Origin: Candidatus Nealsonbacteria bacterium
GTDB taxonomy: Bacteria; Patescibacteriota; Minisyncoccia; Minisyncoccales; GWA2-46-15
DNA: 56,482 bases
Assembly (NCBI GenBank): GCA_016207115.1
Contig: JACQQI010000007.1
Location: forward strand, 1 to 56,482
Reading direction: 5' to 3'
This document shows positions 12,578 through 51,124 of the stretch, one piece after another (within the stretch, counting starts at the first letter, position 1; each line of letters opens with the position of its first letter). The notes beneath the pieces were generated by a model, which saw only the letters and a list, made by a program, of their open reading frames with translations, had not been told where the DNA came from and searched no databases. A program made the position numbers and the translations under genes.

Positions 12578-13510
12578 ATGCCCATGAAAATTACGTTTAG
12601 GGCGAGATTGCTGACGGCATTGGTCTTGGGATTGGGCATAAGCTTAGCGGCCTCCAGTGCTTGGGCGGCCAATGACCTGACCTTTCCGGAAACCTCATAT
12701 TTTTATTTATCCGGCGTTCCGGAAACTCTAACAGTGCAGGCCGGCGGTGTGGTTGATTCTGTTACTGTCGGTACGACCACGGTGGACGTGACCTTGGGTG
12801 CGGGCGGCAGTTTGACCTTGAAATCGCCCTCCCGCTATGTCATGACCGCCTCGCCAACAGCCGTGGGCACGGGCAGTTGCGAGCCTTCAACCTATAACAT
12901 GGTTTTGGCTTCGGCCACGACCCAAACCGTAACGGTGACGGTCAGTTCCACGACCTGTTCGGCGGGCGGCGGTGGAGGCGGAGGAGGGGCGTTACCCGCT
13001 CCTTCGCCCAGCCCCAGTCCGTCTCCCAGCCCAGCGGCCAGCCCGAGTCCTTCACCGAGCCCGGGCGCTTCACCCAGCCCCTCAGTTAGTCCTTCGCCCA
13101 GTCCTTCAGCCAGCCCGAGTCCTTCGGCTAGTCCTAGTCCGACGCCTTTAGCTTTAGTGCCGATTCCCGCGGTTCCGGCCAATCCGACTACGGCTCAGAT
13201 TCAGGCGGCCATTACCGCCATCCAGAACAACATTGCCGTTCTCTTGGCCGAATTAGCCAAAATTCAGACGCCGACCGTTGGCGCTTTCAACCAAGACCTC
13301 TTCTATGGTCTCTGGAATAACGCCGACGTCAAGCGACTACAGGAGTTTCTGATCGGCAAAGGCTATCTGACCGGGAGCGCCACCGGCAACTACTACACCA
13401 AGACGGTGGAAGCAGTTAAGGCCTACCAGACGGCTAAAAACATTACTCCGATCAATGGTCGATTTGGACCGAAGACCAGAGCGGCCGTCAACCAAGACCT
13501 AGGACTCTAG
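12578..13510 (+). CDS. Secreted wall-anchored protein: signal peptide, ~110-aa beta domain, poly-Gly, PS linker, helix, C-terminal PG_binding_1
   Basis: 'LAASSAWA|AND'. 'GGGGGGGG'. 'IQAAITAIQNNIAVLLAELAKIQ'. 'LFYGLWNNADVKRLQEFLIGKGYL...AVKAYQTAKNITPINGRFGPKTRAA'. Confidence 0.8.
   Translation: MPMKITFRARLLTALVLGLGISLAASSAWAANDLTFPETSYFYLSGVPETLTVQAGGVVDSVTVGTTTVDVTLGAGGSLTLKSPSRYVMTASPTAVGTGSCEPSTYNMVLASATTQTVTVTVSSTTCSAGGGGGGGGALPAPSPSPSPSPSPAASPSPSPSPGASPSPSVSPSPSPSASPSPSASPSPTPLALVPIPAVPANPTTAQIQAAITAIQNNIAVLLAELAKIQTPTVGAFNQDLFYGLWNNADVKRLQEFLIGKGYLTGSATGNYYTKTVEAVKAYQTAKNITPINGRFGPKTRAAVNQDLGL
12995..13146 (+). repeat. Pro/Ser-rich linker (coding)
   Basis: '[51 protein letters not shown]'. 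Confidence 0.85.
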
Positions 13511-16747: not shown

Positions 16748-19700
16748 ATGTCCAAACAAAAAGGAGGCAGATTTTTTAAGAGAACCGTCACCGTTTTGAC
16801 GAGCCTGACGACCATTCTTTGGTCGGTTGGTTTACCCGTCTTGCCCGTGGCTTTGGCCGCGACGCCCCACATCATGATGGTTGAATACGTCAACCCGACG
16901 ACTCTTCAGGTCAGGTTTGACCAATTGATGAATGAGTCGACGATTGTGACCGGTTCTTTCACCCTAACGACGGGTGCCACCGGCGATAATTCGTCCATCA
17001 CCAGCGTCACCAACGCGACGGTGGACAGCAAGACCGTGGCGACGGTCGTGGCTTCGGGCGCCAAGATTTCTCCGGGCGCCGGGGATTTTGTCAAAGTGGC
17101 CAGCGGCGCGGAAACCAACTCGCCTAAAAACGGGACGGCCGAAGCCAACGCCGACAACGGCAATATCGGCATCGTCGCCCAGCCCGGCCAGGTGGTCATT
17201 TCCGAAGTCAAGCTGTCGGGCGCCACCGAAACCGACGAATTCATTGAAATTTACAACAAAACCAATTCGACGGTTACTATCTCCGGCTGGAAAGTGACTC
17301 GGCTGGCTCAAGACGGCACGCCGACGGATTTGGTTACTTTTGCCGACCCCACGACCCTGGCCGCCGGTAAGTTCCGGCTGATCGCGCCGACGGGCACGGC
17401 CAATGTGGACAATGCCTACACGCCTTCGGGCAACGGTCTTGACACTAACAATACCGTTATTCTTTACCGAACCGCCGGTCCTTCTTTCCGTTCCGAAGAC
17501 CTGGTTGGCTGCGGTACAGCCGTAATAAAAGAGGGGACGGCCGCCGTTTGTCCGGTTGCCAATACCAGCGGTGAGAGAAAAGCTTCGCCCACTTCGACCG
17601 CCGTGACTTTAGCGGCGGCGGGATCAGAAGTCGCTTGGGGCAATTCTTACGATACCAACAATAATAATTTTGATTTTGTCGGTCAAAGCGGCGCCGGAGT
17701 TAATCCGCAAAGTTCCGCCAGTCCGGCCGAAGTTCCGGGCGGCGGGGGCGGCGGCTACCAAAACCAGCCGCCCAACATCAATCATATGCCGGTGGGCCAG
17801 GTTATTTCCGGTCAGGATTTCATGATCATGGCCCAGATGGCCGATCCCGAAACGCCGGCCCAGGGTCTGACGGCCAATTTAATTTACAGCACCGATGGCG
17901 GCACCACGTGGCTGACCTTAGTCGGCCAGTATATGACGCAAGATTTTAAATTCATTATTCCTTCGGCCGCCACCGGATCGGGCACGGGTGTGGCTTTCAA
18001 ATACTATCTCAAGGCGACCGACGCCGACAGCAATTCAAGGTGTATGTGGAATATGGGTTTTGGCGTTTGCGGCACGGCCGACGCCACGGCTAAGGCCGGC
18101 GCCTGGACCGTCAACAGCACCAGCTCGGCCGGCATGACTAATACCGTCAAAGGAAAAGTAATGTCGGGCGCCAGCGGCATTGATAACGCCAACGTTACTC
18201 TGCGCGGCGCCGGCCTGAATTTCAACACCACTTCAGCCACCGACGGTGTGGCCGGAACTTTTACCTTCAGCAATATTCCTGCGGGTATGTTCCGGCTCGA
18301 GGCCAATGCTCCCGGATACAGCATGGGTTGGATTGATGGTGCGCTTTCTAAGCTCTCGGGAGCCGCCTACGGCGACAACACCATTAACCTGACGGCGGGC
18401 GGGGGTGGCGGCCAGGGTGGCGACACAACTTCGCCGCGGGTCATTTGGTCCGCGCCCATGGACGGCATGAATGGCGCCCCGACAAAAATTAATATCCCGG
18501 CCAGCGGTCAGTTCGAAGCGCCGATCATGATCGGTTTTTCCAAAGACATGGACGCGACGACCATCACCACCGACAACATCAAGATCTATCCGGTGACGGC
18601 TTCGGGCTTGGGCACGGCTCTGTTGGGATTGAGCGTGGCTTACCAAACCCAGAACTCCAGCGTGACCTTAACCGATCGCGGCAGCCGCGTCATTGGTTCG
18701 AGCGACTTTGGCCCCGACCGCAAGGCTCTGGTTTATTCCGCCACGCCCTTGACGGCCAATTCTCAGTACGTCATCGACTTGTCGGCTTCGGTCAAGGATG
18801 CCGCGGGCAACGTTTTGCAGGGCAATAAATCCGGCGGGGGACACTCCATTTCTTTTACCACCAGCGGGGACTTCTCCAGTTTTAACACCGGCCAGATGAC
18901 GACCGGCTTCAATACCTTTATGACTTCCGGCGGCGGCGGCGGGCAATTTACCCCGCCCTACGTCACGGGGTCGGGTCCGAACAACGGGGCCAAGAACGTG
19001 CCGACCAACGCCAAGATCGTCGTCAACTTTTCCCAGCCGATGGATTCGACCGGCATCAATGCTACCAGTTCAACCGGCACCTACGTCAAGCTCTACGACA
19101 CCAACTTCAACAATACCGGCAGCGGCCAGTACGTGACGGTCGAGTCAATTGCCCTGGACACGACCACCAAACAAATGGCGACCCTGACCGTGGGCGGCGC
19201 AGGGTTGGCCGCTAGCCACTCGAATTACGCTATCAGAGTGCTCGGCGGCGCTAAATCCGCTACCGGAGTATCCATGGCCATGCCCGACCAGGCGAATACG
19301 GTTATGTATCAGGCCGATTTCTCCACCGGTTCGACGACGGACGTCGGCGCCCCGACCGTCCTGGGAACCACTCTGCAGACTTACACGGCGGTGACGCCCT
19401 GTACTGGCGCCAATGTTTGCGTCAGCGGCGTGCCGACCAATGTCGGCACCATGGAAATTTCTTTTTCCAAAGACCTGGATGCCTCGACGATCAACTCTTC
19501 CAATATCACCCTGACGAACGGCACGACCTCGGTTTCCACCACCGTTAGCTATGACGGACTTTCCCGTTCCTTGAAGATCGCGCCGACCACGGTCTTGTAC
19601 ACGGTGACGACTTACACCTTGACCGTCGGCACCGGCGTCAAAGCCATGAACGGCACGGCTTTGGCGGCCAACTATGTCGTTTCTTTCACCACCAATTCTA

Positions 19701-22700
19701 CGGTGGACTCAACCGGCCCGACGGTCATGATGGCCAATGGCGACGATTACAAGCTGGCCATTACTTTCTCCGAACCAATGCAGGCCGCCAAAGCCACCGA
19801 TACCGTCAACTGGTCCGCCTCGGTTTTGAATCCGGGCAATTACGTTCTCTACAGCAATAGTTCGCCGCCGCCTTTTGTCGAGAATACTAATATGGCCAAG
19901 TACTTTGCCAACAACACTTTGGCCACGGCCACCGACACGGCCCACGGCGGACCACTGACCTTTAAGTACGACGCGGCCTACAACACGGTCATCATCGAAG
20001 GGCTTAAATTGCTCGATTCGTTACTGACGATAAAGGGCGGGTTTAATATCTGGGTCAAGAACGTCAAAGACATTTCCGGCAACGTCATCCAGGACACGAC
20101 CAAGCCGGCCAACGTCAATGATTTTGGCTTAAACACGGCCGGCGGTCCGGTCATGGATGCCAAATCAACTTTTGGCAATATCGGTCCCGGCGGCGGGGGG
20201 ATGTCGGGTCCGCCGCCAACCTCGGCTTTATCCGGCGGCGCCATGAACGTGACGGCTTTTGGCGGCAAAGACCCGGCCATGATGGGCTTTAAACCCGTCA
20301 ACGTCTTTCCTATGAACATGCTCGGCGGCCAGGAATCGATGTACATGATCGACCTGCCCTTGACTACGGCTATTCCGGCTTCGGGCCAGATCATTCTGAC
20401 TTTCCCGGTGGGTTTTGACGTGACCAACGCTGCCGACGGCGACCCCGGGCAAAAATGGGCTCACAAAGATATCAACGGGCCGGGTACGGGCACGGTGGTA
20501 CTCTCGGCGGTTTCGGCCAACGCCACGGCCCGAACCGTGACCATCACTCTGGGTAGCGTGGCGACTCAGGCCAACGATTTCCTGCACTTGGAAATTGACC
20601 GCATCAAAAACACGACCAAGTCTTCGGACGGAGACCTGGCCAGCGGCATCACCATGGGAGCGGGCTATCAGGTGGATATTTACACCAAGACGCCGAGCTC
20701 GGGCGGTTCCCGAACGCTGGAAACTTTGAAGTCCATGCCCTTCTTTATCAAGTCGGCGGGCGCCTCATCTCTGACCGGCAGCATTACCTTTAAAGACTCT
20801 GCCGGTGCCAACGCGGCCGTGACGTTGACCAATCTGCCGGTTTATCTGATGTCGCCGGCCACCGGCCCGCTGAAAACACTGGTCAGTTTTTCCAATTCGG
20901 CCACCGGAAATTATACCTTCTCCAATTTGCCCACCGGAACCTACATGCTGGGTTCAGAAACCATGCAGTCGGTTTCCGGGACGGATTATTACATCGATTT
21001 ACAGCCCATGCCCCAATCGATCAATGTGGCTTCGGGCAGCAATACCAAGAACTTGGTTTTCCAGGCGCAGTCGGCCGCTAACAAACCCAACCTGACCGTC
21101 TACGTCACCGGCACCTTTACCAATGAGAGCGTGGACATTTTTGCCGGCGGCCCGGGCAACTTCGCCGTTAAAACCATCGCCCTCAATGGAACCTTTACCA
21201 ACGCCTCGCCTTCAATCCAAACTCTTTACTTGCCTTCCACCGGTACTTGGATGGTCGGAATGGGCCCGGCCATGCCTAGGGGGCCGCAGCAATCCGGGCC
21301 TCCGCCCATGCCCAGTTGGATGCCCCCGCGGCCCGTTGAAGTTAACGTTTCGGGCACGGGGCCCGGCTGGACCTGGAAAGACCATGACGGCGCCGCCACT
21401 CTCGACACTTCCTCAACCGACGGCAAAATCACTCTCGGCGTGGCGACGGCCAATAAAACCATCAACGGCCACGTCTATAACCCAGCCGGAAGCACGGGCA
21501 TCCAGAATGCCGAAGTCTTTGCCTTTTCTCCCCTGGGCGGAATGGGATCTCACGCCCAATCGGGCGCCGATGGCTCTTTCACTCTGAAGGTAATGGACGG
21601 CAGTTATCAGGTCGGCGCTTTTGTTCCGGGCATGATGCCCTCCCAAGAAATTCCCGTGGAGGTGAAAACCGTCAGCTCGGTCACGACGATCTACGCCAAC
21701 GGCACGGCCACTACCGATCTCATCATCAAAATCCAGAATCCCGAATCGATGTACACGATTTCGGGCAAAGTGACCGACGGCACCAACGTCATCAAGGATG
21801 CTTCGGTCTATGCCCGCCGAACCGATGCGCCCGGCAACGTCGGCGGCAAAACCGATTCGATGGGTAAATACATTCTCTACGTTCAGGCCGGAACTTGGGC
21901 CGTCGGGGCTTTCCTGCCTCAGTACGGCAACTTAACCGAACAGAGCGTGATGATTAGTACGGCTTCCCAGGCCAACATTGATTTTGCTCCGGCCACGGGC
22001 ACGACCTTTAGGACCGTCAAAGACCGGGTCTATAAAGACGTGGACAGCAGCGGAACTTATACCGGTGGCGACACTCTCTTAGCCAATGTTCACGTGGACT
22101 TTGACCGGACGGGTTATCACAACGGTTCCCTGAGCGATCAGACCGGCCAATACACCATCCTCGTGCCCGACGGTACTTACACGGTGACGGCCTGGTCGCC
22201 CGACATCGGCAAGATTCCGCCGCAGACCGTCGTGGTTTCGGGCAACATCAATTTGACGGGCGAAGCGGATTTACCCGTCTCCGACACCCGGACCGTAACC
22301 GTCAACTTTATTGATTCTTTGGGAGCGCCGGTAACCTTGAGCGAAGTCTATGTCCAGATGGATAAACTCGGCGCCAAAGACGTCAGCAACGAAACGAGCC
22401 GAGAGAACGTTTCTTCGCTGACTCTGCCGGTTCCGGCCGGCACGGGCTACGAATACGCCCTGGAGCTGGCCATTCCCGGCGTAGCCGATCAAACTTTGAC
22501 CCTGGCTGGCGGCGGCAGCACGACGGTGACCGGTTCGGATGTCAACTCCGATAGCGCCATTGACATGTATAAGGTGGTGGTGGACGGTAACGAGACGATT
22601 AATGTCACCGTACCGACGCTTTACCAGGTTTCGGGCCAGGCTCTGGATAATTCCGGCAATCCCTTGACCGATACGGTCGTCAATATCAAAAAGGCCGGGT

Positions 22701-24484
22701 CGAACGACGTGGCCCTGGCGGTCAAAACTGATTCGTCGGGAAACTATTCGGTCAATCTGCCGGCTTCGGGAGCGGGCACGCCTTACCTTTTCCAGATCGA
22801 CAAGGGCGGCTACGTCGACACGGGCTTGTCCGTGGTCGTGGATGGCACGGAAACCCAGAATTTGGACGCCAACAAGGCCAGTTTGACAATTTCCGGCCAG
22901 ATAAAAGTCGGCTCCGCGGGCGTGGAGGGCGCTAAGGTTTTCGGCAAAGAGCTGGGCGGAGGATTCACTTCGACCGAGACCGATGCCCAGGGAAATTACA
23001 GCCTACCCGTGACCGCCGGCAACTGGAAAGTCTCGGCCGCTTCGGATGGCTATCAGGAAAAAGAGTATCAAAATGCTTCCAGCCAGGATATCGTCGTTTC
23101 GGTGACCGCGAGCGTACCCGGGATCGACGTGACCCTGGCGACCCAGAAAACCGGATTGGCCACGGTCAATAATTCTGATTTAAATCCTTCGGCCGGCGCC
23201 ACCTTCGAACATTCGTCGGCGGGACTGGAATTAATCGCGCCGCAGAATGCCATTGCTTCCTCTCAAGCAACCTATCAGATGGAGGATTATGAAGTTGCCA
23301 ACGTCACTTCTTCACCCACGGCTAAAACTATCGGCGGGGAAGCCGTCCAGCTCTCGGCCTATGAACCCTCCGGTTCTTCGATGGTGCCCAAGTCGAGCTT
23401 TTCTTCCGATGTGACCATCGAAAAGAAATACACCAAAGCGGAACTGGTCGCCGAGGGCATCGATACTTTTGCCGAAGCGGAAAACGTCACCATGTCGTAT
23501 TTTGACAACTCGGCTTCCAACTGGGAACCGGTCCTGACCAATATCACCTATTTGGACAGCGGCGACCAGCCGGTCATTCCGACCAACACTCTGGCCAATG
23601 TGGCGGCGGTGGTCTATGCCGGCGTCTCCGACCACCTGACCGTCTATTCGCCGACCAATCAGAATCCGGATGGTTTAGCTCCCTCGGCACCCACCAGCGC
23701 CAGCGGGACCGCCACTTCGGGCACGAATACAATTTCTTGGACGGCGCCGACAACCAATACCGACGCGAGCAGTCTGACCGACCTCTTGGGCTATGAAGTC
23801 TATCGTTCGACTGCGGCCTCGGGCACCTACGTTCAGATCAACGCGACGGACGTGACCTCAACGAGTTATGCCGACAACTCGGTCAGCTCGGGCACGACCT
23901 ACTACTACAAGGTAACGGCGGCCGACACCGGCGGCATTGAATCCAATCTGTCCACGGCTAGCTCGGGAGTCTTGGCCTACGTCGGTGGCGGGGGTGGCGG
24001 CGGCATTTCCTTCTGGCCGACTCCGTCCCCGAGCCCTTCACCGAGTCCGTCGCCTTCGCCCAGTCCCTCCGCCTCACCCAGTCCTTCGGCCAGTCCTTCT
24101 CCGACAACGCCCACGGGCTTAGTGTCGATTCCGACGCTTTCGGCCAATCCGACCCGGTCCGAGATTCAGGCCGCCATCACCGCCATCGTCCAGAACATCG
24201 CCTATTTGCAAGCCGAATTGACCAAACTCCGGGGTGGAGCCGGTTCGATCGCGGCTTTTGTCCAAGATCTTCATTACGGTCTGTTAGAAGATCCTCAGGT
24301 CAAAAAGCTGCAGGGACTTTTGGTCAGCCGGGGCTACCTGGGCACGGGTTTGGACACGGGAAATTACCTGTCCAAGACCGTTCAAGCCGTCAAAGCCTAT
24401 CAGCAAGCCAAAGGCATTACTCCGGTCAACGGCCGCTTTGGGCCCCAGACCCGGCAGGCCATGAACACGGACCTCGGCTTGTAG
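16748..24484 (+). CDS. Giant (2578 aa) S-layer/adhesin-like wall-anchored protein: signal peptide, LTD, Big_5/SbsA-like Ig domains, CarboxypepD_reg-like domains, FN3, PS linker, helix, C-terminal PG_binding_1
   Basis: 'VVISEVKLSGATETDEFIEIYNKTNSTVTISGWKV' (LTD). 'ISFSKDLDASTINSSNITL' (Big_5-like). 'VKGKVMSGASGIDNANVTLRGAG...FTFSNIPAGMFRLEANAPGY' (CarboxypepD_reg-like). 'LLGYEVYRSTAASGTYVQIN...YYYKVTAADTGG' (FN3). C-terminal 'LHYGLLEDPQVKKLQGLLVSRGYL...AVKAYQQAKGITPVNGRFGPQTRQA'. Poly-Gly hinges separate the modules. Confidence 0.85.
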   Translation: MSKQKGGRFFKRTVTVLTSLTTILWSVGLPVLPVALAATPHIMMVEYVNPTTLQVRFDQLMNESTIVTGSFTLTTGATGDNSSITSVTNATVDSKTVATVVASGAKISPGAGDFVKVASGAETNSPKNGTAEANADNGNIGIVAQPGQVVISEVKLSGATETDEFIEIYNKTNSTVTISGWKVTRLAQDGTPTDLVTFADPTTLAAGKFRLIAPTGTANVDNAYTPSGNGLDTNNTVILYRTAGPSFRSEDLVGCGTAVIKEGTAAVCPVANTSGERKASPTSTAVTLAAAGSEVAWGNSYDTNNNNFDFVGQSGAGVNPQSSASPAEVPGGGGGGYQNQPPNINHMPVGQVISGQDFMIMAQMADPETPAQGLTANLIYSTDGGTTWLTLVGQYMTQDFKFIIPSAATGSGTGVAFKYYLKATDADSNSRCMWNMGFGVCGTADATAKAGAWTVNSTSSAGMTNTVKGKVMSGASGIDNANVTLRGAGLNFNTTSATDGVAGTFTFSNIPAGMFRLEANAPGYSMGWIDGALSKLSGAAYGDNTINLTAGGGGGQGGDTTSPRVIWSAPMDGMNGAPTKINIPASGQFEAPIMIGFSKDMDATTITTDNIKIYPVTASGLGTALLGLSVAYQTQNSSVTLTDRGSRVIGSSDFGPDRKALVYSATPLTANSQYVIDLSASVKDAAGNVLQGNKSGGGHSISFTTSGDFSSFNTGQMTTGFNTFMTSGGGGGQFTPPYVTGSGPNNGAKNVPTNAKIVVNFSQPMDSTGINATSSTGTYVKLYDTNFNNTGSGQYVTVESIALDTTTKQMATLTVGGAGLAASHSNYAIRVLGGAKSATGVSMAMPDQANTVMYQADFSTGSTTDVGAPTVLGTTLQTYTAVTPCTGANVCVSGVPTNVGTMEISFSKDLDASTINSSNITLTNGTTSVSTTVSYDGLSRSLKIAPTTVLYTVTTYTLTVGTGVKAMNGTALAANYVVSFTTNSTVDSTGPTVMMANGDDYKLAITFSEPMQAAKATDTVNWSASVLNPGNYVLYSNSSPPPFVENTNMAKYFANNTLATATDTAHGGPLTFKYDAAYNTVIIEGLKLLDSLLTIKGGFNIWVKNVKDISGNVIQDTTKPANVNDFGLNTAGGPVMDAKSTFGNIGPGGGGMSGPPPTSALSGGAMNVTAFGGKDPAMMGFKPVNVFPMNMLGGQESMYMIDLPLTTAIPASGQIILTFPVGFDVTNAADGDPGQKWAHKDINGPGTGTVVLSAVSANATARTVTITLGSVATQANDFLHLEIDRIKNTTKSSDGDLASGITMGAGYQVDIYTKTPSSGGSRTLETLKSMPFFIKSAGASSLTGSITFKDSAGANAAVTLTNLPVYLMSPATGPLKTLVSFSNSATGNYTFSNLPTGTYMLGSETMQSVSGTDYYIDLQPMPQSINVASGSNTKNLVFQAQSAANKPNLTVYVTGTFTNESVDIFAGGPGNFAVKTIALNGTFTNASPSIQTLYLPSTGTWMVGMGPAMPRGPQQSGPPPMPSWMPPRPVEVNVSGTGPGWTWKDHDGAATLDTSSTDGKITLGVATANKTINGHVYNPAGSTGIQNAEVFAFSPLGGMGSHAQSGADGSFTLKVMDGSYQVGAFVPGMMPSQEIPVEVKTVSSVTTIYANGTATTDLIIKIQNPESMYTISGKVTDGTNVIKDASVYARRTDAPGNVGGKTDSMGKYILYVQAGTWAVGAFLPQYGNLTEQSVMISTASQANIDFAPATGTTFRTVKDRVYKDVDSSGTYTGGDTLLANVHVDFDRTGYHNGSLSDQTGQYTILVPDGTYTVTAWSPDIGKIPPQTVVVSGNINLTGEADLPVSDTRTVTVNFIDSLGAPVTLSEVYVQMDKLGAKDVSNETSRENVSSLTLPVPAGTGYEYALELAIPGVADQTLTLAGGGSTTVTGSDVNSDSAIDMYKVVVDGNETINVTVPTLYQVSGQALDNSGNPLTDTVVNIKKAGSNDVALAVKTDSSGNYSVNLPASGAGTPYLFQIDKGGYVDTGLSVVVDGTETQNLDANKASLTISGQIKVGSAGVEGAKVFGKELGGGFTSTETDAQGNYSLPVTAGNWKVSAASDGYQEKEYQNASSQDIVVSVTASVPGIDVTLATQKTGLATVNNSDLNPSAGATFEHSSAGLELIAPQNAIASSQATYQMEDYEVANVTSSPTAKTIGGEAVQLSAYEPSGSSMVPKSSFSSDVTIEKKYTKAELVAEGIDTFAEAENVTMSYFDNSASNWEPVLTNITYLDSGDQPVIPTNTLANVAAVVYAGVSDHLTVYSPTNQNPDGLAPSAPTSASGTATSGTNTISWTAPTTNTDASSLTDLLGYEVYRSTAASGTYVQINATDVTSTSYADNSVSSGTTYYYKVTAADTGGIESNLSTASSGVLAYVGGGGGGGISFWPTPSPSPSPSPSPSPSPSASPSPSASPSPTTPTGLVSIPTLSANPTRSEIQAAITAIVQNIAYLQAELTKLRGGAGSIAAFVQDLHYGLLEDPQVKKLQGLLVSRGYLGTGLDTGNYLSKTVQAVKAYQQAKGITPVNGRFGPQTRQAMNTDLGL
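24017..24106 (+). repeat. Pro/Ser-rich linker (coding)
   Basis: '[30 protein letters not shown]'. Confidence 0.85.
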
Positions 24485-24628: not shown

Positions 24629-24655
24629 AGAATTAAATTGATATTCTTTTCCGCG

Positions 24656-26338
24656 ATGAAACGATTTTTTGTTTCAATTTTCTTCTTATCGATCACCTTA
24701 ATTCCTTCTTCGGCCGCGGCCTTTTCCATTGGCGACAGCCAGATCTTCAACGTGGAATCGACTTTCGACCTGACCCAGAGGGACCAATTGACCGCCAGCT
24801 TGAAAAAGACGACCAATCAAGCCTATTTCTATTTCGACAATGCTTGGTGGTCGCAGCTGAGAAGCGAGCAGCAGATTCAGGTGACCAACTCTTTGAATAA
24901 TCTGGGCGAGGAGTTCGACGGCAAGATCTATCCGGTTTTGACCCAGGCCTTCGGCGACGTCTGGAACCCGGGCATCGACAAGGACACGCGCATCACCATT
25001 CTCTTCCATCCGATGAAAGAAGCGTCGGGCGGCTATTTCAATTCGGCCGACGAATATACCAAGGCGCAGATCCCCAAGTCCAACGAGAGGGAAATGCTCT
25101 ACCTCAACGCCAACCAGGCCACCAGCCCTTTATTGAGAGCCTTTCTGGCACACGAGTTCCAGCACCTCATCAGTTTCAACCAGAAAGAGAGATTGAAGGG
25201 AGTGACCGAGGACGTCTGGCTCAACGAGGCCCGCTCCGAATACGCCGCGACTCTCCTGGGTTACGATTCGCCCTACGAGGGCTCGAACCTGGAGAGGCGG
25301 GTGAGGAATTTCCTCGATAAACCCTACGATTCTCTGACCGAGTGGAAAAACCAGTCGGCCGACTACGGCGTAACCAATCTTTTCATCCAGTACCTGGTTG
25401 ACCATTACGGCGTTGATGTTCTGAAAGAATCGATGTTCTCTTCGAAAACCGGCATCGACAGCCTCAACGAAGTCCTGAAAAAGCTCGGTTTTACCGAATC
25501 TTTTTCCGAGATTTTCACCAACTGGACCGTGGCCAGCTTCGTCAACGACTGCAATCTCGACGTCCGTTATTGTTATCTGAACGAAAGTCTGCGCAGCTTC
25601 CGCATCGTGCCCCAGGCCAACTTTCTGCCGCCGGTGACTCAGACGAGCCTGTCGGTGGTCAACACGACCAAAGAGTGGTCGGGCAACTGGTACAAGTTCT
25701 TCGGCGCCAAGGGGAACCTGACGCTGGAATTCAACGGCAACAGCGCGACCGCGTCTTTCAAAATACCCTATCTCTTGGAAGGCAAAGACGGCAAAACCAA
25801 CGTTGACTTCATGAGCCTCGACGGCCTTTCCCGCGGCCGCCTGACAGTCAAAGATTTCGATAAAAACTATTTTACCTTGATCATCATCCCTTCTCTGCGG
25901 GGGAAGAGCAGCAATTTTTCTTCGCTGGAGCCGACAGTTCAGTTTTCCTGGACGGCTTCGGCCGGTGAAAATGTCGGGACGCCCTCGGAGAACCCGGCCG
26001 AGATCGAGGCCCTCTTAAACAAGATCGCCGAGCTGAAGCAGGAAATCGCCCGACTGCAGCAATTGCTGTCGGGTCTAAAACCGACCCCTTCCTTTTCCTG
26101 CTCGTCGTTTCCTCTCAACCTTTATTACGGCCTGACCGGCTCTCCGGAAGTCCGCTGCCTGCAGGAATTCCTGAAATCCAGGGGCGAGGGGATTTATCCG
26201 GAGAAACTGGTCACCGGCAGCTATCTATCCCTGACGGTCCAGGCGGTCAAGCGCTATCAGGCCCAAAAAGGCATCGTTCCAACCGGCTATTTCGGCCCCA
26301 AGACGAGAGCCGCCGCCAACCTTGACATTTCCAAATAG
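24656..26338 (+). CDS. Secreted HExxH zinc metalloprotease with C-terminal helix plus PG_binding_1 anchor
   Basis: Signal 'FFVSIFFLSITLIPSSAAA'. 'LRAFLAHEFQHLISF' (HExxH; the HEFQH context recalls peptidase M30, unverified). C-terminal 'IEALLNKIAELKQEIARLQQLL' followed by 'LYYGLTGSPEVRCLQEFLKS...AVKRYQAQKGIVPTGYFGPKTRAA'. ATG at 24656 preferred to TTG at 24638. Confidence 0.75.
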   Translation: MKRFFVSIFFLSITLIPSSAAAFSIGDSQIFNVESTFDLTQRDQLTASLKKTTNQAYFYFDNAWWSQLRSEQQIQVTNSLNNLGEEFDGKIYPVLTQAFGDVWNPGIDKDTRITILFHPMKEASGGYFNSADEYTKAQIPKSNEREMLYLNANQATSPLLRAFLAHEFQHLISFNQKERLKGVTEDVWLNEARSEYAATLLGYDSPYEGSNLERRVRNFLDKPYDSLTEWKNQSADYGVTNLFIQYLVDHYGVDVLKESMFSSKTGIDSLNEVLKKLGFTESFSEIFTNWTVASFVNDCNLDVRYCYLNESLRSFRIVPQANFLPPVTQTSLSVVNTTKEWSGNWYKFFGAKGNLTLEFNGNSATASFKIPYLLEGKDGKTNVDFMSLDGLSRGRLTVKDFDKNYFTLIIIPSLRGKSSNFSSLEPTVQFSWTASAGENVGTPSENPAEIEALLNKIAELKQEIARLQQLLSGLKPTPSFSCSSFPLNLYYGLTGSPEVRCLQEFLKSRGEGIYPEKLVTGSYLSLTVQAVKRYQAQKGIVPTGYFGPKTRAAANLDISK

Positions 26339-27776: not shown

Positions 27777-27808
27777 CAATCCCGCAACATTTCTTGCGGG
27801 ATTGTTTT
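27777..27808 (+). terminator. Intrinsic terminator/attenuator in the speH leader
   Basis: Perfect 11-bp stem caatcccgcaa / ttgcgggattg, 6-nt loop, then tttt. It ends 7 nt before the ATG at 27815. Confidence 0.65.
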
Positions 27809-27814
27809 CGCAAG

Positions 27815-28255
27815 ATGATCACCCAAAGATTTCATTACATTTTTGACGCTTGGGGCCTGGCGCCCAAAAATCTGAACAGCAAGAAATTGGTGGGTTCTTT
27901 GCTCCGGGACGTTTCCAAGATTTGCAAAATGAGAATCATCGGCGGTCCCTTGGTGGTTCAGGGCATGGATTACAATCCGGGCATTTCCGGTTTTTGCATC
28001 ATTGATTTTTCCCACATCTCCATTCACACTTTTTCCGGCCCGGGCGAAGTTTGCGTGGACATCTTCTCTTGCAAACCTTTCAATCCGGAAGAGGTGAAAA
28101 AATATCTTTTGAAAAAACTAAAAGCGGACGAAAAGAAACTGACTTTTTTCCAGGTTTCCTATCCCGCGGCGCGCAAGATTTCCTCGGCCAACATCGCTTT
28201 CGCCGGCGTCGCCAATCGGAAAGCCCCGGCGACCAGCGTCGTCAGAGAGGCCTAG
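27815..28255 (+). CDS. speH: S-adenosylmethionine decarboxylase proenzyme (small pyruvoyl type)
   Basis: 'GFCIIDFSHISIHTFSGPGEVCVDIFSCKPF' matches the '..(E)SH(L/I)SIHTWPE...D(V/I)F(T/S)C' self-processing region. ATG at 27815 used rather than TTG at 27794. Confidence 0.8.
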   Translation: MITQRFHYIFDAWGLAPKNLNSKKLVGSLLRDVSKICKMRIIGGPLVVQGMDYNPGISGFCIIDFSHISIHTFSGPGEVCVDIFSCKPFNPEEVKKYLLKKLKADEKKLTFFQVSYPAARKISSANIAFAGVANRKAPATSVVREA

Positions 28256-28341: not shown

Positions 28342-30561
28342 ATGGAAAAAGAACCGGGAAAAGAAAAGTTTCTTTTGGGGAAGAGAATTGTTCCCCGGAA
28401 GCTCAAGAAAAAAAACAGCGTCACCGAACTGGTCAATAATCATTTTCAGGCCTACAACGCCGCCCGGCTTCAGGAGTCTTGTCGGCTTTTGGCGGAAAAA
28501 ATGCTCGACCCCAAAAGGGAAGTGACCATCGGCATCACCCTGGCCGGCGCTCTGACTCCGGCCGGCATTTCCGGAATGATCGTTTCCATGATGGAACACG
28601 GTTTTATCGATTTTATCGTTTCCACCGGAGCCAATCTCTACCACGACACCCATTTTGCTCTGAATTACCCTTTACACAAAGGCACTTGGCAGACCGACGA
28701 CACCGTTCTCTGGAACCACGGCGTCATCAGAATTTATGACATTTTTTTAACCACCGACACCCTTTTAAACACCGATAAGTGGACGCAAAAAGTGCTTTTG
28801 GAAAAAGGAGCGCCGCGCGGCGTCATCACCACGAGTGAATTCCATCATTATCTAGGCCAGAAGCTGCTTCGGGACGCTCCCCATCCGGAAATCTCCATTC
28901 TCGCCCAGGCGGCGAAATTTAATGTTCCGGTTTACACCTCTTCTCCGGGGGATTCCACCTACGGCATGGATTTGGCGAATTTTAACAAGGCCCGCAACAA
29001 AGAATTTTCTAGGAAAGGGTCTATCAATCTTCACATCAATCCTAATTGGGACGTCGTCGAAACGGCGGCCATTGTTTTGGGCGCCAAAGAAAACGGGGTG
29101 ATTCTTTTGGGCGGAGGTTCGCCCAAGAATTTTTATTTGCAGACCCAGCCTTATTTATGGGAATGCCTGGGTATTGAAAAAGGCGGCCACGACTACTTCA
29201 TCCAAATCACGATGGATTCTCCCCAGTGGGGCGGGCTTTGTTTCAGCGGGTTTTCGAATATCATTTTAGCTGGTGATAAGATAAAAAAGGCTAAAGATGT
29301 GAAAGTTGGCGATAAAATTCTGACGATCGATGACAAAAATAATGTAGTAACTACGGAGGTAAAGAAGATTTTCAAGAGAAAGATTAATGAGGGAGAAAGA
29401 CTTTATATTATTAAGGCGGAGGATTCGCGCGTGCAATGCGGTGACTGTGGAGTGACCACGGGAAAAAAATCAGGGCACAAGGTAAAATTAACAGTTACAG
29501 AGGACCATTTAATATTTACGGATAGGGGATGGGTGAAAGCAAAGGATTTGGCCAAGAATGATAAAATTCTAAAGATCACGCAATACGACAAAATCGCATT
29601 CGACAGAGCGAATAAAATTCCGCTCCATCTTCGCAATTATTGTTTTGAACCAGGAGAGAAAAATCCTTTTTTTGGTAAAATCGGGGCACAAAATCCATTT
29701 TTCGGCAGGACACACTCTGAGTCAGTAAAACAATATCTTTCTGCCCTTAGGACCGGTAAAACCTGGGAAGAGTTAATAGGTAAAAAAAGAGCTGAGGCGT
29801 TGAAGAGTAAATACCGTGAAATAATGAAGGGTGATAAAAATCCAGCTTGGGCTGGAGGCATTTCTTGGGAACCATACGCTGAAGAGTTTTTTATGATAAG
29901 GAGTGTGGTTTTGGAGCGCGATAATTCCAGTTGTAAATTGTGTGGCATAACCGAAAAGGAAAGTTACGAAAAACACAACCAGCACCTCCACGTTCATCAT
30001 ATGGATTTTGACAAAAAAAATAATTCGCTGAAAAATCTTGTAAGCCTTTGCGTATCATGTCACGGTAAAGCAAATTTCCCGAAATATAGAGAAGAATGGA
30101 ATCAAAAATTAGTAGCCATATCGGCAAAAACCACTGGAAACGAGCTTGCTGACTGCCCAGAATTTCTGCCCATAAAAGAAATTATCGTTTATAAAAGCAG
30201 AAAACAGATCACGGGTTGTCTTCATGGGGAAGAAGTTTATGATTTTATGTGTTATCCATACCACAACTTCTTCTCTGATTGGATCTTGATTCATAATAGT
30301 GGGGCGACACCGCAGGAAGCGGTTTCCTGGGGCAAAATCAACCCCGATGAATTGAAAAACACGGTCGTCGTCTACAGCGACACCACCATCGCTTCGCCGA
30401 TTCTTTTCAGCTACGCTTTTGAAAACGCCCGGCCCAGAAAAAGAAAAGAGCTCTACAAAAAACTCGCTAAGCTGGTCTATAACTTAGAAAAAGAGGTCAA
30501 AAACAAGGCGGTCACCTGGACGGCCGACGCTCTCTATGAAAAACACAAGCACCAAAAATAA
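28342..30561 (+). CDS. Deoxyhypusine synthase-like (DHS/homospermidine-synthase family) protein interrupted by an intein
   Basis: Exteins: 'GITLAGALTPAGISGMIV', 'STGANLYHD', 'LLGGGSPKNFYLQTQP', 'SGATPQEAVSWGKI'. 739 aa in total, of which 353 are intein. Confidence 0.8.
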   Translation: MEKEPGKEKFLLGKRIVPRKLKKKNSVTELVNNHFQAYNAARLQESCRLLAEKMLDPKREVTIGITLAGALTPAGISGMIVSMMEHGFIDFIVSTGANLYHDTHFALNYPLHKGTWQTDDTVLWNHGVIRIYDIFLTTDTLLNTDKWTQKVLLEKGAPRGVITTSEFHHYLGQKLLRDAPHPEISILAQAAKFNVPVYTSSPGDSTYGMDLANFNKARNKEFSRKGSINLHINPNWDVVETAAIVLGAKENGVILLGGGSPKNFYLQTQPYLWECLGIEKGGHDYFIQITMDSPQWGGLCFSGFSNIILAGDKIKKAKDVKVGDKILTIDDKNNVVTTEVKKIFKRKINEGERLYIIKAEDSRVQCGDCGVTTGKKSGHKVKLTVTEDHLIFTDRGWVKAKDLAKNDKILKITQYDKIAFDRANKIPLHLRNYCFEPGEKNPFFGKIGAQNPFFGRTHSESVKQYLSALRTGKTWEELIGKKRAEALKSKYREIMKGDKNPAWAGGISWEPYAEEFFMIRSVVLERDNSSCKLCGITEKESYEKHNQHLHVHHMDFDKKNNSLKNLVSLCVSCHGKANFPKYREEWNQKLVAISAKTTGNELADCPEFLPIKEIIVYKSRKQITGCLHGEEVYDFMCYPYHNFFSDWILIHNSGATPQEAVSWGKINPDELKNTVVVYSDTTIASPILFSYAFENARPRKRKELYKKLAKLVYNLEKEVKNKAVTWTADALYEKHKHQK
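29239..30297 (+). mobile_element. Intein (353 codons) with NUMOD3-like motifs and an HNH homing-endonuclease domain
   Basis: Starts with Cys ('CFSGFSNIILAG'). Block B is 'VTEDHLIFT'. 'NPFFGK'/'NPFFGR' motifs. 'CKLCG...HVHHMDFDKKNNSLKNLVSLCVSCHGKAN'. Ends 'ILIHN' followed by +1 Ser. Confidence 0.8.
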
Positions 30562-31420
30562 GCCGCCCGATTATCCGCAGCTCGAGCCCTTGAATTTCGG
30601 TGGCATGGCTGAACAGGATTACCGCAAGGCCAAGGTGGTGATTTTTCCCGTACCCTACGACGCCACGACTTATTACAAGCCCGGCACCAAGGAGGGTCCA
30701 CGGGCCATCATCGAAGCTTCGCGCCACATGGAAGTCTACGACGCGGACTCTAAGCGGTCCCTGAAAGACACGGATGTTTTCACCCTGCCCGAGTTGGAGC
30801 CCTCTAAAAATTCTCCCGGCGAAACGGTTCAGAGAATCGAGAAGGTTGTCTCTCAGCTGATCGCCGCCAAAAAGAAGCCTTTGATGTTAGGCGGAGAGCA
30901 TTCCATCACTCTGGGAGCGGTTCGGGCCTTCCAAAAGGCCCGGGCAGACTTTTCGGTCCTGCAATTAGACGCTCACACCGATCTGAGAGACGTTTTCGAG
31001 GGCACCAAATATCACCACGCTTGCGTCATGCGCCGCGTTCGGGAAGTTAATCCGGCCTTGGTGCAGGCGGGCATCCGCAGCCTCTGCCAGGAGGAAGCCG
31101 ACTACATCAGCAAAAAGAAAATCCAGAACATCTTTTTTGCGCCGGGCTTGCCGACAGAAGAAATCATTTCTTCCCTCAAAAAGAATGTCTATCTGACCCT
31201 GGACATCGACGCCCTCGATCCTTCAATTATGCCCTCGACCGGCACGCCCGAGCCGGGGGGCCTGGGCTGGTACGAAACGATTGAGTTTTTGCACCGTCTT
31301 TCCCAAAAGAGACAGATCATCGGCGCTGATTTGGTGGAGCTGTCTCCCATTCCGGGCTTGATCGCGCCCGACTTTCTGGCCGCTAAACTCGCTTATAAAA
31401 TAATAAATTGTCTCATTTAA
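30536..31420 (+). CDS. speB: Agmatinase / ureohydrolase family
   Basis: 'MLGGEHSITLG', 'LQLDAHTDLRD', 'LTLDIDALDPSIMPSTGTPEPGGL'. Overlaps the DHS gene by 26 nt. Confidence 0.8.
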   Translation: MKNTSTKNKPPDYPQLEPLNFGGMAEQDYRKAKVVIFPVPYDATTYYKPGTKEGPRAIIEASRHMEVYDADSKRSLKDTDVFTLPELEPSKNSPGETVQRIEKVVSQLIAAKKKPLMLGGEHSITLGAVRAFQKARADFSVLQLDAHTDLRDVFEGTKYHHACVMRRVREVNPALVQAGIRSLCQEEADYISKKKIQNIFFAPGLPTEEIISSLKKNVYLTLDIDALDPSIMPSTGTPEPGGLGWYETIEFLHRLSQKRQIIGADLVELSPIPGLIAPDFLAAKLAYKIINCLI

Positions 31421-41792: not shown

Positions 41793-43427
41793 ATGAACGA
41801 ATCAGAGATCAACTTTTTTGCCGAAACGACTTTTCGCCACGAGCGGAGGAAATTTGGCATCAAATTAGACGACCGGCGCAAGCACATGTATTTCATCGGC
41901 AAGACCGGCATGGGCAAAACCAACGCCATGGCCAACATGGCCATCCAGGACATTCAGGCGGGGCGAGGGATTGGCTTCATCGATCCCCATGGCGAGACGG
42001 CTCAGGCCTTGCTGGATTTCGTGCCGTCCGAGAGAGTCAACGACGTCGTCTTTTTCAATCCCGCCGACCTGGATTTTCCCATCTCTTTCAACGTCATGGA
42101 AAAGGTGGACGTGGAACACCGCCACCTGGTCGCCTCGGGTCTTATGGGCGTTTTCAAAAAGCTCTGGCCCGACGTCTGGTCGGCCCGCATGGAATACATT
42201 TTGAATAATGCCATTTTGGCTCTTCTAGAGTATCCGGGCTCGACGCTCCTCGGCATCAACCGCATGCTCGGGGATCCCGAGTACCGAGCGAAAGTGCTGG
42301 AGAAAGTGACCGATCCGGTCATCCGAGCTTTTTGGTTGCAGGAATACGCTCGCTACACCCAGCGCTACGAGGTGGAAGCCACGGCCGCCATCCAAAACAA
42401 AGTCGGCCAGTTCATCTCGGCCCCCCTGATCCGCAACATCATCGGCCAGGTTTCTTCCAAGATCGACATGCGGGAAATCATGGATAGTCATAAAATTCTG
42501 ATCATGGACGTTTCCAAGGGCCGGATCGGCGAAGACAACTCCATGCTACTGGGGTCGTTGCTCGTCACTAAGCTGCAGCTGGCGGCCATGTCCCGCGTCG
42601 ACATTCCCGAGGAACAAAGACAAGACTTTTTCCTCTACGTCGACGAGTTCCAGAATTTTGCCACCGAGTCCTTTGCCAATATCCTCTCCGAAGCCCGGAA
42701 ATATCGGCTGGATCTGATTTTGGGCCACCAGTACATCACCCAACTGATCGAAGAAGTCCGCGACGCAGTTTTTGGCAATATGGGTACACTGGTTTGTTTT
42801 CGGATCGGCGCCGAAGACGCCGAGTTCCTGGAAAGGGAATTCTCGCCTGATTTTACCGCCGCCGACCTGGTCAATCTGGGTAAGTACAACGTTTACTTAA
42901 AATTGATGATCGATGGATTGACCGGACGGCCATTTTCCGCCCAGACCTTGCCACCGATTTTAAAGCCGGAGAAGTCCAGCCGGGAGAAAATCATCTATGT
43001 TTCCCGGGAAAGATACAGCGTGGCGAGGAGCGTCGTGGAAGACAAAATCAGCCGCTGGACGGGTTTGTCCGAAGGCAAAGCACTCCCGCCGGTTACCGCC
43101 GCCGAGGGGGCGCTCTACGATGCTCAGTGCGAGACGTGCAAGAAGTGGACCAAGGTGGTTTTTAAGCCGGACGGCAAGCGCCCGGTCTACTGCAAAACCT
43201 GTTTGAAAAAGGTGCAGCGGGAAAGAGAAAAACCGGCCGAGACTCCGATTGAAAGACCGCCGGCGAGCTCGCCACCTCTTTCTCTGGCCGAAGCCTTGAC
43301 CAAAGAGCCGGTTTCTTTTTCGGCCAAAAAGGAAAGGCCTCGCGCCGCTCCCGAGATGGATAAAGTCAAGGAGGCGATCAAAGAAGCGCTGGCCGAGGAA
43401 AAACATGAAAACGATTCGAGGCCTTAA
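41793..43427 (+). CDS. VirD4/TraG/TraD-like (FtsK-HerA superfamily) P-loop ATPase with C-terminal CxxC-x17-CxxC zinc ribbon and charged tail
   Basis: Walker A 'FIGKTGMGKTN'. Walker B 'FFLYVDEFQNFA'. 'ARKYRLDLILGHQYITQL'. 'CETCKKWTKVVFKPDGKRPVYCKTC'. Confidence 0.75.
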   Translation: MNESEINFFAETTFRHERRKFGIKLDDRRKHMYFIGKTGMGKTNAMANMAIQDIQAGRGIGFIDPHGETAQALLDFVPSERVNDVVFFNPADLDFPISFNVMEKVDVEHRHLVASGLMGVFKKLWPDVWSARMEYILNNAILALLEYPGSTLLGINRMLGDPEYRAKVLEKVTDPVIRAFWLQEYARYTQRYEVEATAAIQNKVGQFISAPLIRNIIGQVSSKIDMREIMDSHKILIMDVSKGRIGEDNSMLLGSLLVTKLQLAAMSRVDIPEEQRQDFFLYVDEFQNFATESFANILSEARKYRLDLILGHQYITQLIEEVRDAVFGNMGTLVCFRIGAEDAEFLEREFSPDFTAADLVNLGKYNVYLKLMIDGLTGRPFSAQTLPPILKPEKSSREKIIYVSRERYSVARSVVEDKISRWTGLSEGKALPPVTAAEGALYDAQCETCKKWTKVVFKPDGKRPVYCKTCLKKVQREREKPAETPIERPPASSPPLSLAEALTKEPVSFSAKKERPRAAPEMDKVKEAIKEALAEEKHENDSRP

Positions 43428-46074: not shown

Positions 46075-46076
46075 AT

Positions 46077-46466
46077 ATTCCGGTCAGTCTGTAAGCCGAA
46101 TTCTGTCTGCTTCCGGTTAAGGAAGGAGGCAATCATTTCTCTGGTCCCTCGGTTGCCCTCGGGATCTAGCGAACTACTTTTAACTCCTCAGGATTTTCCG
46201 CGGGGAAATTCCGACGAGCTTTGTTCTTGCGCCCGATAAGGATTTGGCCGTTTCATTCCCAGGGTTGCCCCCGGGACTTACCTCGCGTTGGGCGGGGTAG
46301 CCCTTAGCTTTCGCCTCGGGCCGTTTCTGTTCGCACCTCTAGCCTTGCGGCCGAAGGGTATTACCCTCTATCTTTTTTGGTCCGCCGTCGAGCGGAGAAG
46401 GGTGTTCGGACTTTCCTCCCGGTCGGGGATTAACCCAACCGAGCGATTACCCGATTGACCGGAATA
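46077..46466 (-). ncRNA. rnpB: RNase P RNA (bacterial type)
   Basis: The reverse complement contains GGGAGGAAAGTCCGAACAC (+ strand 46402-46420) and ACAGAATTCGGCTTACAG (+ strand 46089-46106), the two P4 halves. P1 pairing is TTCCGGTCA / TGACCGGAA. There is no ORF in 46034-46520. Confidence 0.85.
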
Positions 46467-51050: not shown

Positions 51051-51124
51051 GCGGGATTAGCACAGTGGTAGTGCGCTTGCTTCCCAAGCAAGATAGGCGG
51101 GTTCGATTCCCGTATCCCGCTCCA
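51051..51124 (+). tRNA. tRNA-Gly (anticodon CCC), CCA encoded
   Basis: GCGGGAT/ATCCCGC acceptor stem, GCAC/GTGC D stem, CTTGC-TTCCCAA-GCAAG anticodon arm, GCGGG-TTCGATT-CCCGT T arm, then TCCA. Confidence 0.9.

Follow-up and report, generated by a model that had tools for sequence, protein, structure and literature searches.

A probable full-length HNH-type intein within a speY-like homospermidine biosynthesis gene of a Candidatus Nealsonbacteria bacterium

The speY-like gene of a Candidatus Nealsonbacteria bacterium is very probably interrupted by a full-length, bifunctional class-1 intein bearing a NUMOD3-like/HNH endonuclease. The element occupies positions 29239-30297 on the forward strand of a stretch of 56,482 nucleotides (NCBI GenBank assembly GCA_016207115.1, contig JACQQI010000007.1), which was analysed at its full length and is referred to here as the window. 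The evidence consists of the anatomy of the element, a seamless junction in the host protein, empty alleles in related genes, signs of horizontal movement in both phylogeny and composition, and purifying selection on the inserted sequence. These sequence features make it most probable that the intein can splice and that it is mobile now or was so recently.

The precursor gene is read on the plus strand from 28342 to 30561 as an uninterrupted frame of 739 codons followed by TAA, with a predicted product of 84.0 kDa. The N-extein (28342-29238) contains 299 amino acids, ends in ...ITMDSPQWGGL and covers positions 10-262 of the Pfam DS profile (PF01916). The C-extein (30298-30561) consists of 87 amino acids and the stop codon, and begins with Ser+1, encoded by AGT at 30298-30300. 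Between them lies an insert of 353 codons, which starts with Cys (TGT, 29239-29241) and ends with His-Asn (30292-30297). Excision of this insert (residues 300-652, nt 29239-30297) gives a protein of 386 amino acids with a predicted mass of 43.4 kDa. Against the DS profile, the joined exteins give one continuous match from position 10 to 287 of 288, with 244 bits, and the uncut precursor gives two separate stretches with 221.9 bits.

In precursor numbering, Leu299 and Ser653 flank the insertion, which falls in the loop WGGL|SGATP. In phmmer alignments, the joined exteins run without a gap at the junction against the archaeal deoxyhypusine synthase (DHS) structures 7cmc and 8put, as well as against human DHS, so that WGGL|SGATPQEAVSWGKI corresponds to archaeal DGSLSGAPPREGVSWGKI and to human DGSDSGARPDEAVSWGKI. 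Counted along the full-length human chain, the insertion point falls between the equivalents of Asp316 and Ser317. Ser+1 of the window is the counterpart of human Ser317, the Lys of SWGK (AAA, 30334-30336; C-extein residue +13, 12 residues past Ser+1) is that of human Lys329, and His288 is aligned too. Lys329 of human DHS is the residue that forms the enzyme-imine intermediate (PMC10042821). Since the site maps 12 residues ahead of the equivalent of this catalytic Lys, the intein splits the active-site loop. Colinear with the profile over its full length and provided with the catalytic Lys of SWGK, the spliced protein belongs to the DS family. An earlier sequence-only reading of this DNA had described a DHS-like protein on both flanks, a 353-codon insert running from Cys to His-Asn and followed by Ser, and a +1 Ser lying 12 residues upstream of the Lys in EAVSWGK. 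All of this is borne out by the coordinates and the human equivalents, and the joined exteins are contiguous across the junction with DHS profiles and solved structures alike. Intein-less homologues, additionally, carry nothing at the site. Our homologue survey covers the precursor's 120 best homologue clusters, of which 84 are intein-less, and all 84 read GGLSGA(T/P).

The insert itself is a protein of 353 amino acids and 40.6 kDa, in which a Hint domain is split by a NUMOD3-like and Cys4 HNH module, as seen with Pfam. Block A with the Cys1 nucleophile (29239-29325) is aligned by the Pfam Hint profile over residues 1-63. Block B, VTEDHLIFT (29494-29520, with T87-E-D-H90 at 29497-29508), aligns with its counterpart in the Spl DnaX and NrdJ-1 inteins. 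Blocks F and G, EEVYDFMCYPYHNFFSDWILIHN (30229-30297), end in His352-Asn353 and align with the Spl DnaX mini-intein and with the C-terminal blocks of a second group of inteins at the same site, called family B below. The insert scores 39.7 bits against Pfam Intein_splicing (PF14890; cut-off 35.8) and 36.0 bits against Pfam Hint (PF01079; cut-off 29.7), and the Hint blocks A, B and F/G that had been recognised by eye are thus present at the places quoted and backed by profiles. A profile of the insert family matches the Spl DnaX mini-intein (7cfv) with E = 2e-6 through blocks B and F/G, and it matches the NrdJ-1 intein and an HNH endonuclease as well. Cys1, T87, H90, D335, H352, N353 and Ser+1 are invariant in all seven sequences of family A, the family to which the intein of the window belongs. 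The hallmarks of a class-1 intein, namely Cys1, TxxH, the F/G blocks, His-Asn and Ser+1, are all present.

This anatomy bears on the view that the enzyme has permanently taken up a Hint-like or nuclease domain, to be used for instance in regulation or in association with DNA, and keeps it in the mature protein as a non-splicing insertion domain. Non-ligating members of the Hint superfamily, which leave their flanks unligated, are known, and the Hint halves of the insert were modelled with low confidence. Bacterial intein-like (BIL) and other non-splicing Hint domains are found in variable regions of non-conserved proteins, often without the +1 nucleophile or the terminal Asn. The insert of the window, on the contrary, interrupts a conserved enzyme at its most conserved loop and possesses both Asn353 and Ser+1, which complete its class-1 set. 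A retained domain of 40 kDa, splitting the loop for substrate binding and catalysis 12 residues before the catalytic Lys, should abolish the activity of the enzyme. Additionally, orthologues at 75-96% identity exist without the insert and with a perfect junction, and the insert moves between hosts independently of the exteins. We regard a retained insertion domain as very improbable.

The endonuclease module of the intein lies between the two splicing halves. Two NUMOD3-like repeats (29662-29709, plus strand), NPFFGK at 29662-29679 and NPFFGR at 29692-29709, are accompanied by a third, degenerate repeat, KNPAWAGG, at 29836-29859. The HNH core, C232-x2-C235...H253-H254...N261/N266...C271-x2-C274-H275, spans 29932-30063, and the insert scores 22.2 bits against Pfam HNH (PF01844; cut-off 21.4). 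The label NUMOD3-like is used here for its motifs, because the profile score is below threshold. The nuclease earlier placed between the splicing halves as NUMOD3/HNH is therefore retained in its HNH part, which passes the cut-off, and in its motifs, with the NUMOD3 part left below the profile threshold. Across 65 homologues C232, H253, H254, N266, C271 and C274 are invariant, C235 and N261 are conserved at 90% or more, and H275 is invariant within family A. An AlphaFold2 (AF2) model from a 65-sequence alignment gives this module a predicted local distance difference test score (pLDDT) of 85-96 at residues ~210-300 and of 76-89 in a helical region at residues ~140-200. Its closest structural matches are zinc-finger HNH domains of the McrA, Cap5, IscB and Cas9 type, all weak (E > 1e-3); EcoKMcrA, Cap5, IscB, Cas9 HNH and ScoMcrA are among the matches listed by Foldseek with this model, each with E >= 2e-3.

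Among the Pfam matches of the insert at E <= 0.1 there is no LAGLIDADG/DOD family, and Hom_end_hint reaches only 13.6 bits, covering the N-terminal Hint part. The PHROG collection returns phrog_8446, 'HNH endonuclease', with E = 6e-18, and tblastn with the endonuclease module finds matches in phage genomes, some of them inside terminase genes. The module is hence of the phage-like HNH type rather than LAGLIDADG, as had been proposed: phage HNH PHROGs match and LAGLIDADG models do not. An exhaustive search with the intein found 5196 representative proteins at E <= 1e-10. Nearly all of the best 150 of these 5196 align to residues ~140-290 only, and these 150 are mostly free-standing proteins of 170-340 amino acids, typically 35-48% identical. 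A word-indexed search with the intein alone found 2 proteins only. The free-standing homologues of the module contain repeated NNPM.G motifs. I-HmuI and I-TevIII are enzymes of the NUMOD-HNH type. Free-standing NUMOD3-HNH endonucleases of phages and small-genome bacteria share with the module of the window the NP..G repeats and the C-x2-C...HH...N...C-x2-C-H core, and differ from it in that the latter is embedded in a Hint domain, without a start or stop codon of its own. Its presence in inteins of unrelated hosts suggests that several intein lineages have this endonuclease module in common. The same NUMOD3-HNH module was seen inside inteins of B12/radical-SAM-like enzymes (proteins P0141 and P0149) and of large, phage-derived-looking proteins (P0122, P0137 and P0171), and P0183 also belongs to the module-bearing set. 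Some of these proteins of unrelated hosts carry two inteins.

The host of the intein had been named DHS-like, which is right as to the DS family and less so as to DHS proper; the protein is better described as a SpeY homologue. The NCBIfam model NF001980, 'homospermidine biosynthesis protein', is the best-scoring model for the spliced exteins by a wide margin, with 441.0 bits over positions 1-347 of 350, and gives 416.8 bits with the uncut precursor. Its equivalog cut-off of 450 bits is narrowly missed, both by the spliced exteins (441.0) and by the intein-less protein P0006 (446), and the name SpeY-like is used because the score lies just under this cut-off. Upstream of the precursor gene, at 27794-28255 on the plus strand, lies a gene of the AdoMetDC fold (Pfam AdoMet_dc, 69.8 bits). 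It falls below the cut-off for a bona fide S-adenosylmethionine (SAM) decarboxylase (56.2 against 75.65) and probably encodes an arginine decarboxylase of the SpeDA type. Downstream, at 30536-31420 on the plus strand, lies a gene for a SpeB-like ureohydrolase of the agmatinase family (Pfam Arginase, 225 bits; TIGR01230 agmatinase, 259.6 bits, cut-off 174.3), whose probable substrate is N1,N9-bis(guanidino)homospermidine (G44G). Clusters of speDA-speY-speB have been described (PMC10407285, PMC13625781). In this pathway, SpeY couples two agmatines into G44G, which the SpeB-like ureohydrolase converts to homospermidine (PMC13625781, PMC10407285).

The window thus presents the gene neighbourhood that marks SpeY, with a probable arginine decarboxylase and an agmatinase-family enzyme, and an arginase-family gene is found immediately downstream of the DHS-like gene in loci L002-L006 as well. 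From this sequence context, the spliced product would be a SpeY-like enzyme of the decarboxylase-speY-agmatinase pathway to homospermidine. It resembles the published SpeY in its best match to NF001980, in the Lys of SWGK and in its neighbours, an AdoMetDC-fold decarboxylase and an agmatinase-family enzyme. It differs in bearing an intein, as no characterised SpeY gene has been reported with one. Across the syntenic loci, three unrelated folds occupy the decarboxylase position immediately upstream of speY: the AdoMetDC fold in the window, a pyruvoyl PvlArgDC in L001 (331-873) and L002 (5216-5758), and a pyridoxal phosphate-dependent Orn/Arg decarboxylase in L005 (4571-5944). This looks like non-orthologous displacement and matches the theme of three arginine decarboxylase folds in PMC13625781. 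The agmatinase-like open reading frame (ORF), as mechanically called from its ATG, shares 26 nt with the end of speY (30536-30561), and the overlap is 4 nt in L002. Its true start may lie downstream, or its translation may be coupled to that of speY.

An insert was found at exactly GGL|C...HN|SG[A/C]T in 36 of the 120 best clusters, which is a minimum count of carriers. Matches were uninterrupted in the 80 best metagenome loci; the junction motif is intact in 79 of these, and L064 was not scorable. Family A consists of P0002, P0003, P0004, P0005, P0007, P0121 and L003. Of these, P0004 is OGZ33308.1 from Ca. Portnoybacteria, labelled 'hypothetical protein', and P0121 is MDO8659492.1 from Ca. 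Parcubacteria, labelled 'NUMOD3 domain-containing DNA-binding protein, partial'. The homologous inteins of this family at the same site are 64-68% identical to that of the window. The family is rare: it is represented full-length by one further 50%-identity cluster among 1.84 billion representatives, and it occurs in one of 185,579 GTDB species genomes. The insert of the window nevertheless recurs in eight further occurrences from separate assemblies (L002-L006, L093, L094 and the partial protein P0121).

This recurrence decides the question of whether the gene is an artefact of assembly or gene calling, with a DHS-like gene and an HNH gene unrelated to it fused in a chimeric contig. In favour of this stand the metagenomic type of the contig and the composition of the insert, which is sharply unlike the rest of it. 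Both junctions are in frame to the codon and coincide with exact canonical intein boundaries, and the same architecture stands at the same codon in the loci and partial protein just named, which come from JGI, ENA and NCBI. An assembly chimera is effectively ruled out by these independent assemblies, and the chance of an artefact is close to nil.

The remaining 30 carrier clusters (P0052-P0119) come from other bacteria and form family B, with inserts of 173-390 amino acids. Its full-length forms, of ~387-390 amino acids, possess an HNH_3-like (sub-threshold) and HTH_8 module, and a graded series of endonuclease-deleted mini-inteins spans 173-296 amino acids. Example loci are L087 (5001-7283), L088 (5001-7277) and L090 (5001-6743, with a mini-intein of 216 amino acids). 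Families A and B share the identical insertion point, TGGL|C...VHN|SGATP, the class-1 boundaries and, when full-length, an HNH-type endonuclease. However, family B is only 20-28% identical to the intein of the window, and it is distinguished by its HNH_3 and HTH_8 nuclease, its many mini-inteins and a +1 codon of the form TCN rather than AGY. A common recent ancestry of the two families was considered and rejected, as hhalign aligns only the 22-residue F/G block, with 11% probability. Because they barely align, the same SpeY site appears to have been colonised by two distinct intein lineages. The alignments suggest that the GGL|SGA loop of the SpeY/DHS family is a recurrent landing site for inteins, reached independently by at least two unrelated HNH lineages.

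The phylogeny of family A points to movement between hosts. Its inteins are mutually 64-79% identical, and remain 64-75% identical where the exteins share only 35-37% (P0004 and P0005 compared with the window, P0002 and P0003). The hosts are of two NCBIfam types, NF001980 and NF002006 'deoxyhypusine synthase', and the nearest named relatives of the NF002006-type host are mostly archaeal, with one Patescibacteria protein. Both host types share the order MurB ... decarboxylase - DHS::intein - arginase-family gene ... SecA. Empty alleles are found close to both. P0006 (locus L001), which lies in the same operon, shares 75-81% of its residues with the window, P0002 and P0003 in the exteins, and P0281 (locus L092) is 96% identical in protein and 89% in nucleotide sequence to the spliced exteins of P0005. 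At the empty site, alleles L001, L007 and L008 read ...CAGTGGGGnGGnCTT|TCAGGnGCnACTCC.... Sporadic distribution, discordance between intein and host, and empty alleles at 75-96% extein identity are thus combined in one family, as in a mobile element. The comparison suggests that the lineage of the window crosses between SpeY-type genes of bacteria and DHS genes of the archaeal type in the small genomes of the Candidate Phyla Radiation (CPR).

Two further loci deserve mention beside this comparison. In L095 (3100-5023, P0285), a 77%-identical DHS of the archaeal type (NF002006) adjoins an arginase-family gene, in a context that is clearly archaeal (ribosomal L21e, Pus10, Rpb6 and SRP54). Together, L095, L092 and L093 suggest that the DHS-arginase pair has been exchanged between DPANN-like archaea and CPR bacteria. 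In L004, from Ca. Portnoybacteria, genes for bAvd and a reverse transcriptase (RVT_1) at 847-2238 lie ~2.7 kb upstream of DHS::intein, and this pair resembles a diversity-generating retroelement.

The composition of the intein also sets it apart from its host gene. Its guanine-plus-cytosine (GC) content is 0.383, and 0.382 at third codon positions (GC3); the exteins have a GC of ~0.49 and a GC3 of 0.60-0.63, with 0.495 and 0.599 for the N-extein. The intein is the lowest-GC segment of 1059 nt in the window (mean 0.524, sd 0.039), at ~3.6 sd under the mean. In every family A locus examined, the overall GC of the intein is below that of the exteins. In family B, full-length inteins are AT-richer than their hosts, and the mini-intein examined (L090) has a host-like GC.

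A further trace may be preserved in the first extein codon behind the intein. The +1 Ser codon is AGY in all eight family A alleles, and TCN in 78 of 80 empty alleles and in three of three family B alleles. This pattern may mean that the intein was co-converted together with one extein codon or more, starting from the first. AGY was also considered as a mark of any past occupancy and discarded as such, because the family B alleles have TCN and their intein-less relative L091 has AGC.

Selection on the inserted sequence was estimated by the ratio of non-synonymous to synonymous substitution rates (dN/dS), which is ~0.03-0.18 in all sub-regions with unsaturated dS, including the HNH and the linker/NUMOD regions. 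The value is relevant to the possibility that the element is a decaying intein or part of a pseudogene, one that splices poorly or not at all in a dead speY copy, or whose endonuclease is inactive and which merely persists. Intein homing cycles do end in decay of the endonuclease, and the mini-inteins of family B, of 173-296 amino acids and host-matching GC, are found at the very same site; the sub-threshold NUMOD3 score would agree with such a fate. In the window, the frame of 739 codons is intact, and the splicing and HNH catalytic residues are all invariant across family A. The HNH and NUMOD regions evolve at a dN/dS of ~0.05-0.18, the operon partners are intact and syntenic, and the wide gap in GC3 speaks of a relatively late arrival and not of an old resident. 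Decay is accordingly an unlikely account of this element, if somewhat less so than a retained insertion domain.

Several observations weigh against the reading of an intact and mobile intein, or reduce its force. The Intein_splicing, Hint and HNH scores exceed their Pfam cut-offs by only 1-6 bits, and Pfam NUMOD3 (PF07460) stays below its cut-off of 20.4 with 18.5 bits in the window and 17.4 in P0004. An AF2 model of the intein from a 7-sequence alignment was unusable (pLDDT 43). The 65-sequence alignment raised the overall pLDDT to 68.7 and left the Hint regions mostly below 60, and because of this low confidence in the Hint halves, membership of the Hint fold is assigned from sequence profiles and motifs alone. 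For the codon pattern, Fisher's test with the first 6 family A alleles and the 80 empty ones returns p = 6e-8, a value uncorrected for phylogeny. L092, the closest empty allele in the second host clade, has AGT. That AGY is simply native to this second host subfamily is thus only partly borne out, as L095 and L096, relatives at 77% identity, have TCT at the +1 codon. As dS is ~1-2 or saturated, the dN/dS values are approximate and the transfers of family A are not very recent. Compared with its closest intein-bearing relatives, the window is 67% identical in the intein and 74% in the exteins, so that the element may have been co-inherited vertically within this sub-clade. With these points taken into account, we still hold a class-1 intein with a NUMOD3-like/HNH endonuclease in speY to be the highly probable identity of 29239-30297.

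The steps of splicing and homing would then be those of the established intein mechanism, from which the splicing chemistry, the endonuclease activity and the target specificity are taken by analogy. The 84-kDa precursor would be translated whole. Cys1 would perform an N-S acyl shift, and the acyl group would be passed to the hydroxyl of Ser+1. Cyclisation of Asn353, assisted by His352, would free the 40.6-kDa intein, and an O-N shift would restore the native GGL-SGA peptide bond and yield an active enzyme of 43.4 kDa. The HNH module, for its part, would act on the DNA of alleles that lack the intein, cutting or nicking them at the conserved site ...TGGGGnGGnCTn|TCnGGnGC..., and repair off the intein-bearing copy would copy the element in, with at least the adjacent AGY Ser codon. 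The intein could, in addition, be more than a parasite. Conditional splicing, gated for instance by redox state through the conserved Cys306, Cys327 and Cys338 near Cys1, would make it a post-translational switch on homospermidine synthesis, although we consider such a role rather unlikely.

The first HNH intein to be recognised was that of cyanobacterial GyrB, and HNH-bearing inteins occur in phage terminase genes. The element of the window resembles class-1 HNH inteins in its Cys1, TxxH, His-Asn and +1 nucleophile, in an endonuclease placed between blocks B and F, in its position in a conserved active-site loop and in its presence/absence polymorphism. It also shares its NUMOD3-HNH module with inteins of radical-SAM and phage-like proteins, with matches in terminase genes. 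Unlike them, it is hosted by an NAD-dependent enzyme of polyamine biosynthesis from the SpeY/DHS family, and its lineage is very small. Bacterial inteins were counted in a 2016 survey as lying to 61.5% in replication/repair proteins and to 21.7% in proteins of nucleotide metabolism (PMC4760082). The words 'intein' and 'insertion' are absent from PMC13625781, inteins are unmentioned in PMC10407285, and no paper linking inteins with DHS or homospermidine synthase was found in the searchable literature, nor anything relevant on inteins in the Candidate Phyla Radiation or Patescibacteria. The sequence-only reading knew of no DHS among catalogued intein hosts, and this agrees with the searchable papers; in the data, however, such hosts are not rare, with at least 36 of 120 clusters bearing an intein. 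It is an ordinary kind of element with a textbook mechanism, in a host enzyme for which no published intein report was found.

The finding adds an enzyme of polyamine biosynthesis, as a new category of host, to a list dominated by replication, repair and nucleotide metabolism (PMC4760082). It also affects annotation. The intein-bearing proteins are labelled in their sources as 'deoxyhypusine synthase', 'hypothetical protein' or 'NUMOD3 domain-containing DNA-binding protein'. Dozens of public entries of 545-768 amino acids under the first two names are intein-bearing precursors, and the one partial entry under the third is an intein fragment. To express such a SpeY heterologously, or to rebuild the pathway as in PMC13625781, one would have to start from the spliced sequence. 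Furthermore, the pairs of occupied and empty alleles, at ~75-96% extein identity, and the AGY/TCN marker offer a compact system for the study of homing and co-conversion by HNH inteins in uncultured CPR bacteria.

Among the long ORFs of the window, no further inteins were found. The ORF at 16748-24484 encodes a predicted surface protein of 2578 amino acids, with 5 CarboxypepD_reg domains, a Big_5 domain, a lamin-tail domain and a C-terminal PG_binding_1 domain. PG_binding_1 or lamin-tail domains are present in further large proteins at 50-3187, 5683-9789, 12578-13510 and 24638-26338, and the large ORFs at 10065-12548 and 14397-16577 gave zero Pfam matches. Essentially all long ORFs lie on the plus strand, and the minus strand bears an RNase P RNA of the bacterial class A at 46076-46462 (115.7 bits). 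A single tRNA-Gly(CCC) is located on the plus strand at 51051-51124. In an otherwise housekeeping neighbourhood, the product of the ORF at 41793-43427 is a type IV coupling-protein ATPase, similar to TrwB/TraG and equipped with a treble-clef zinc finger.

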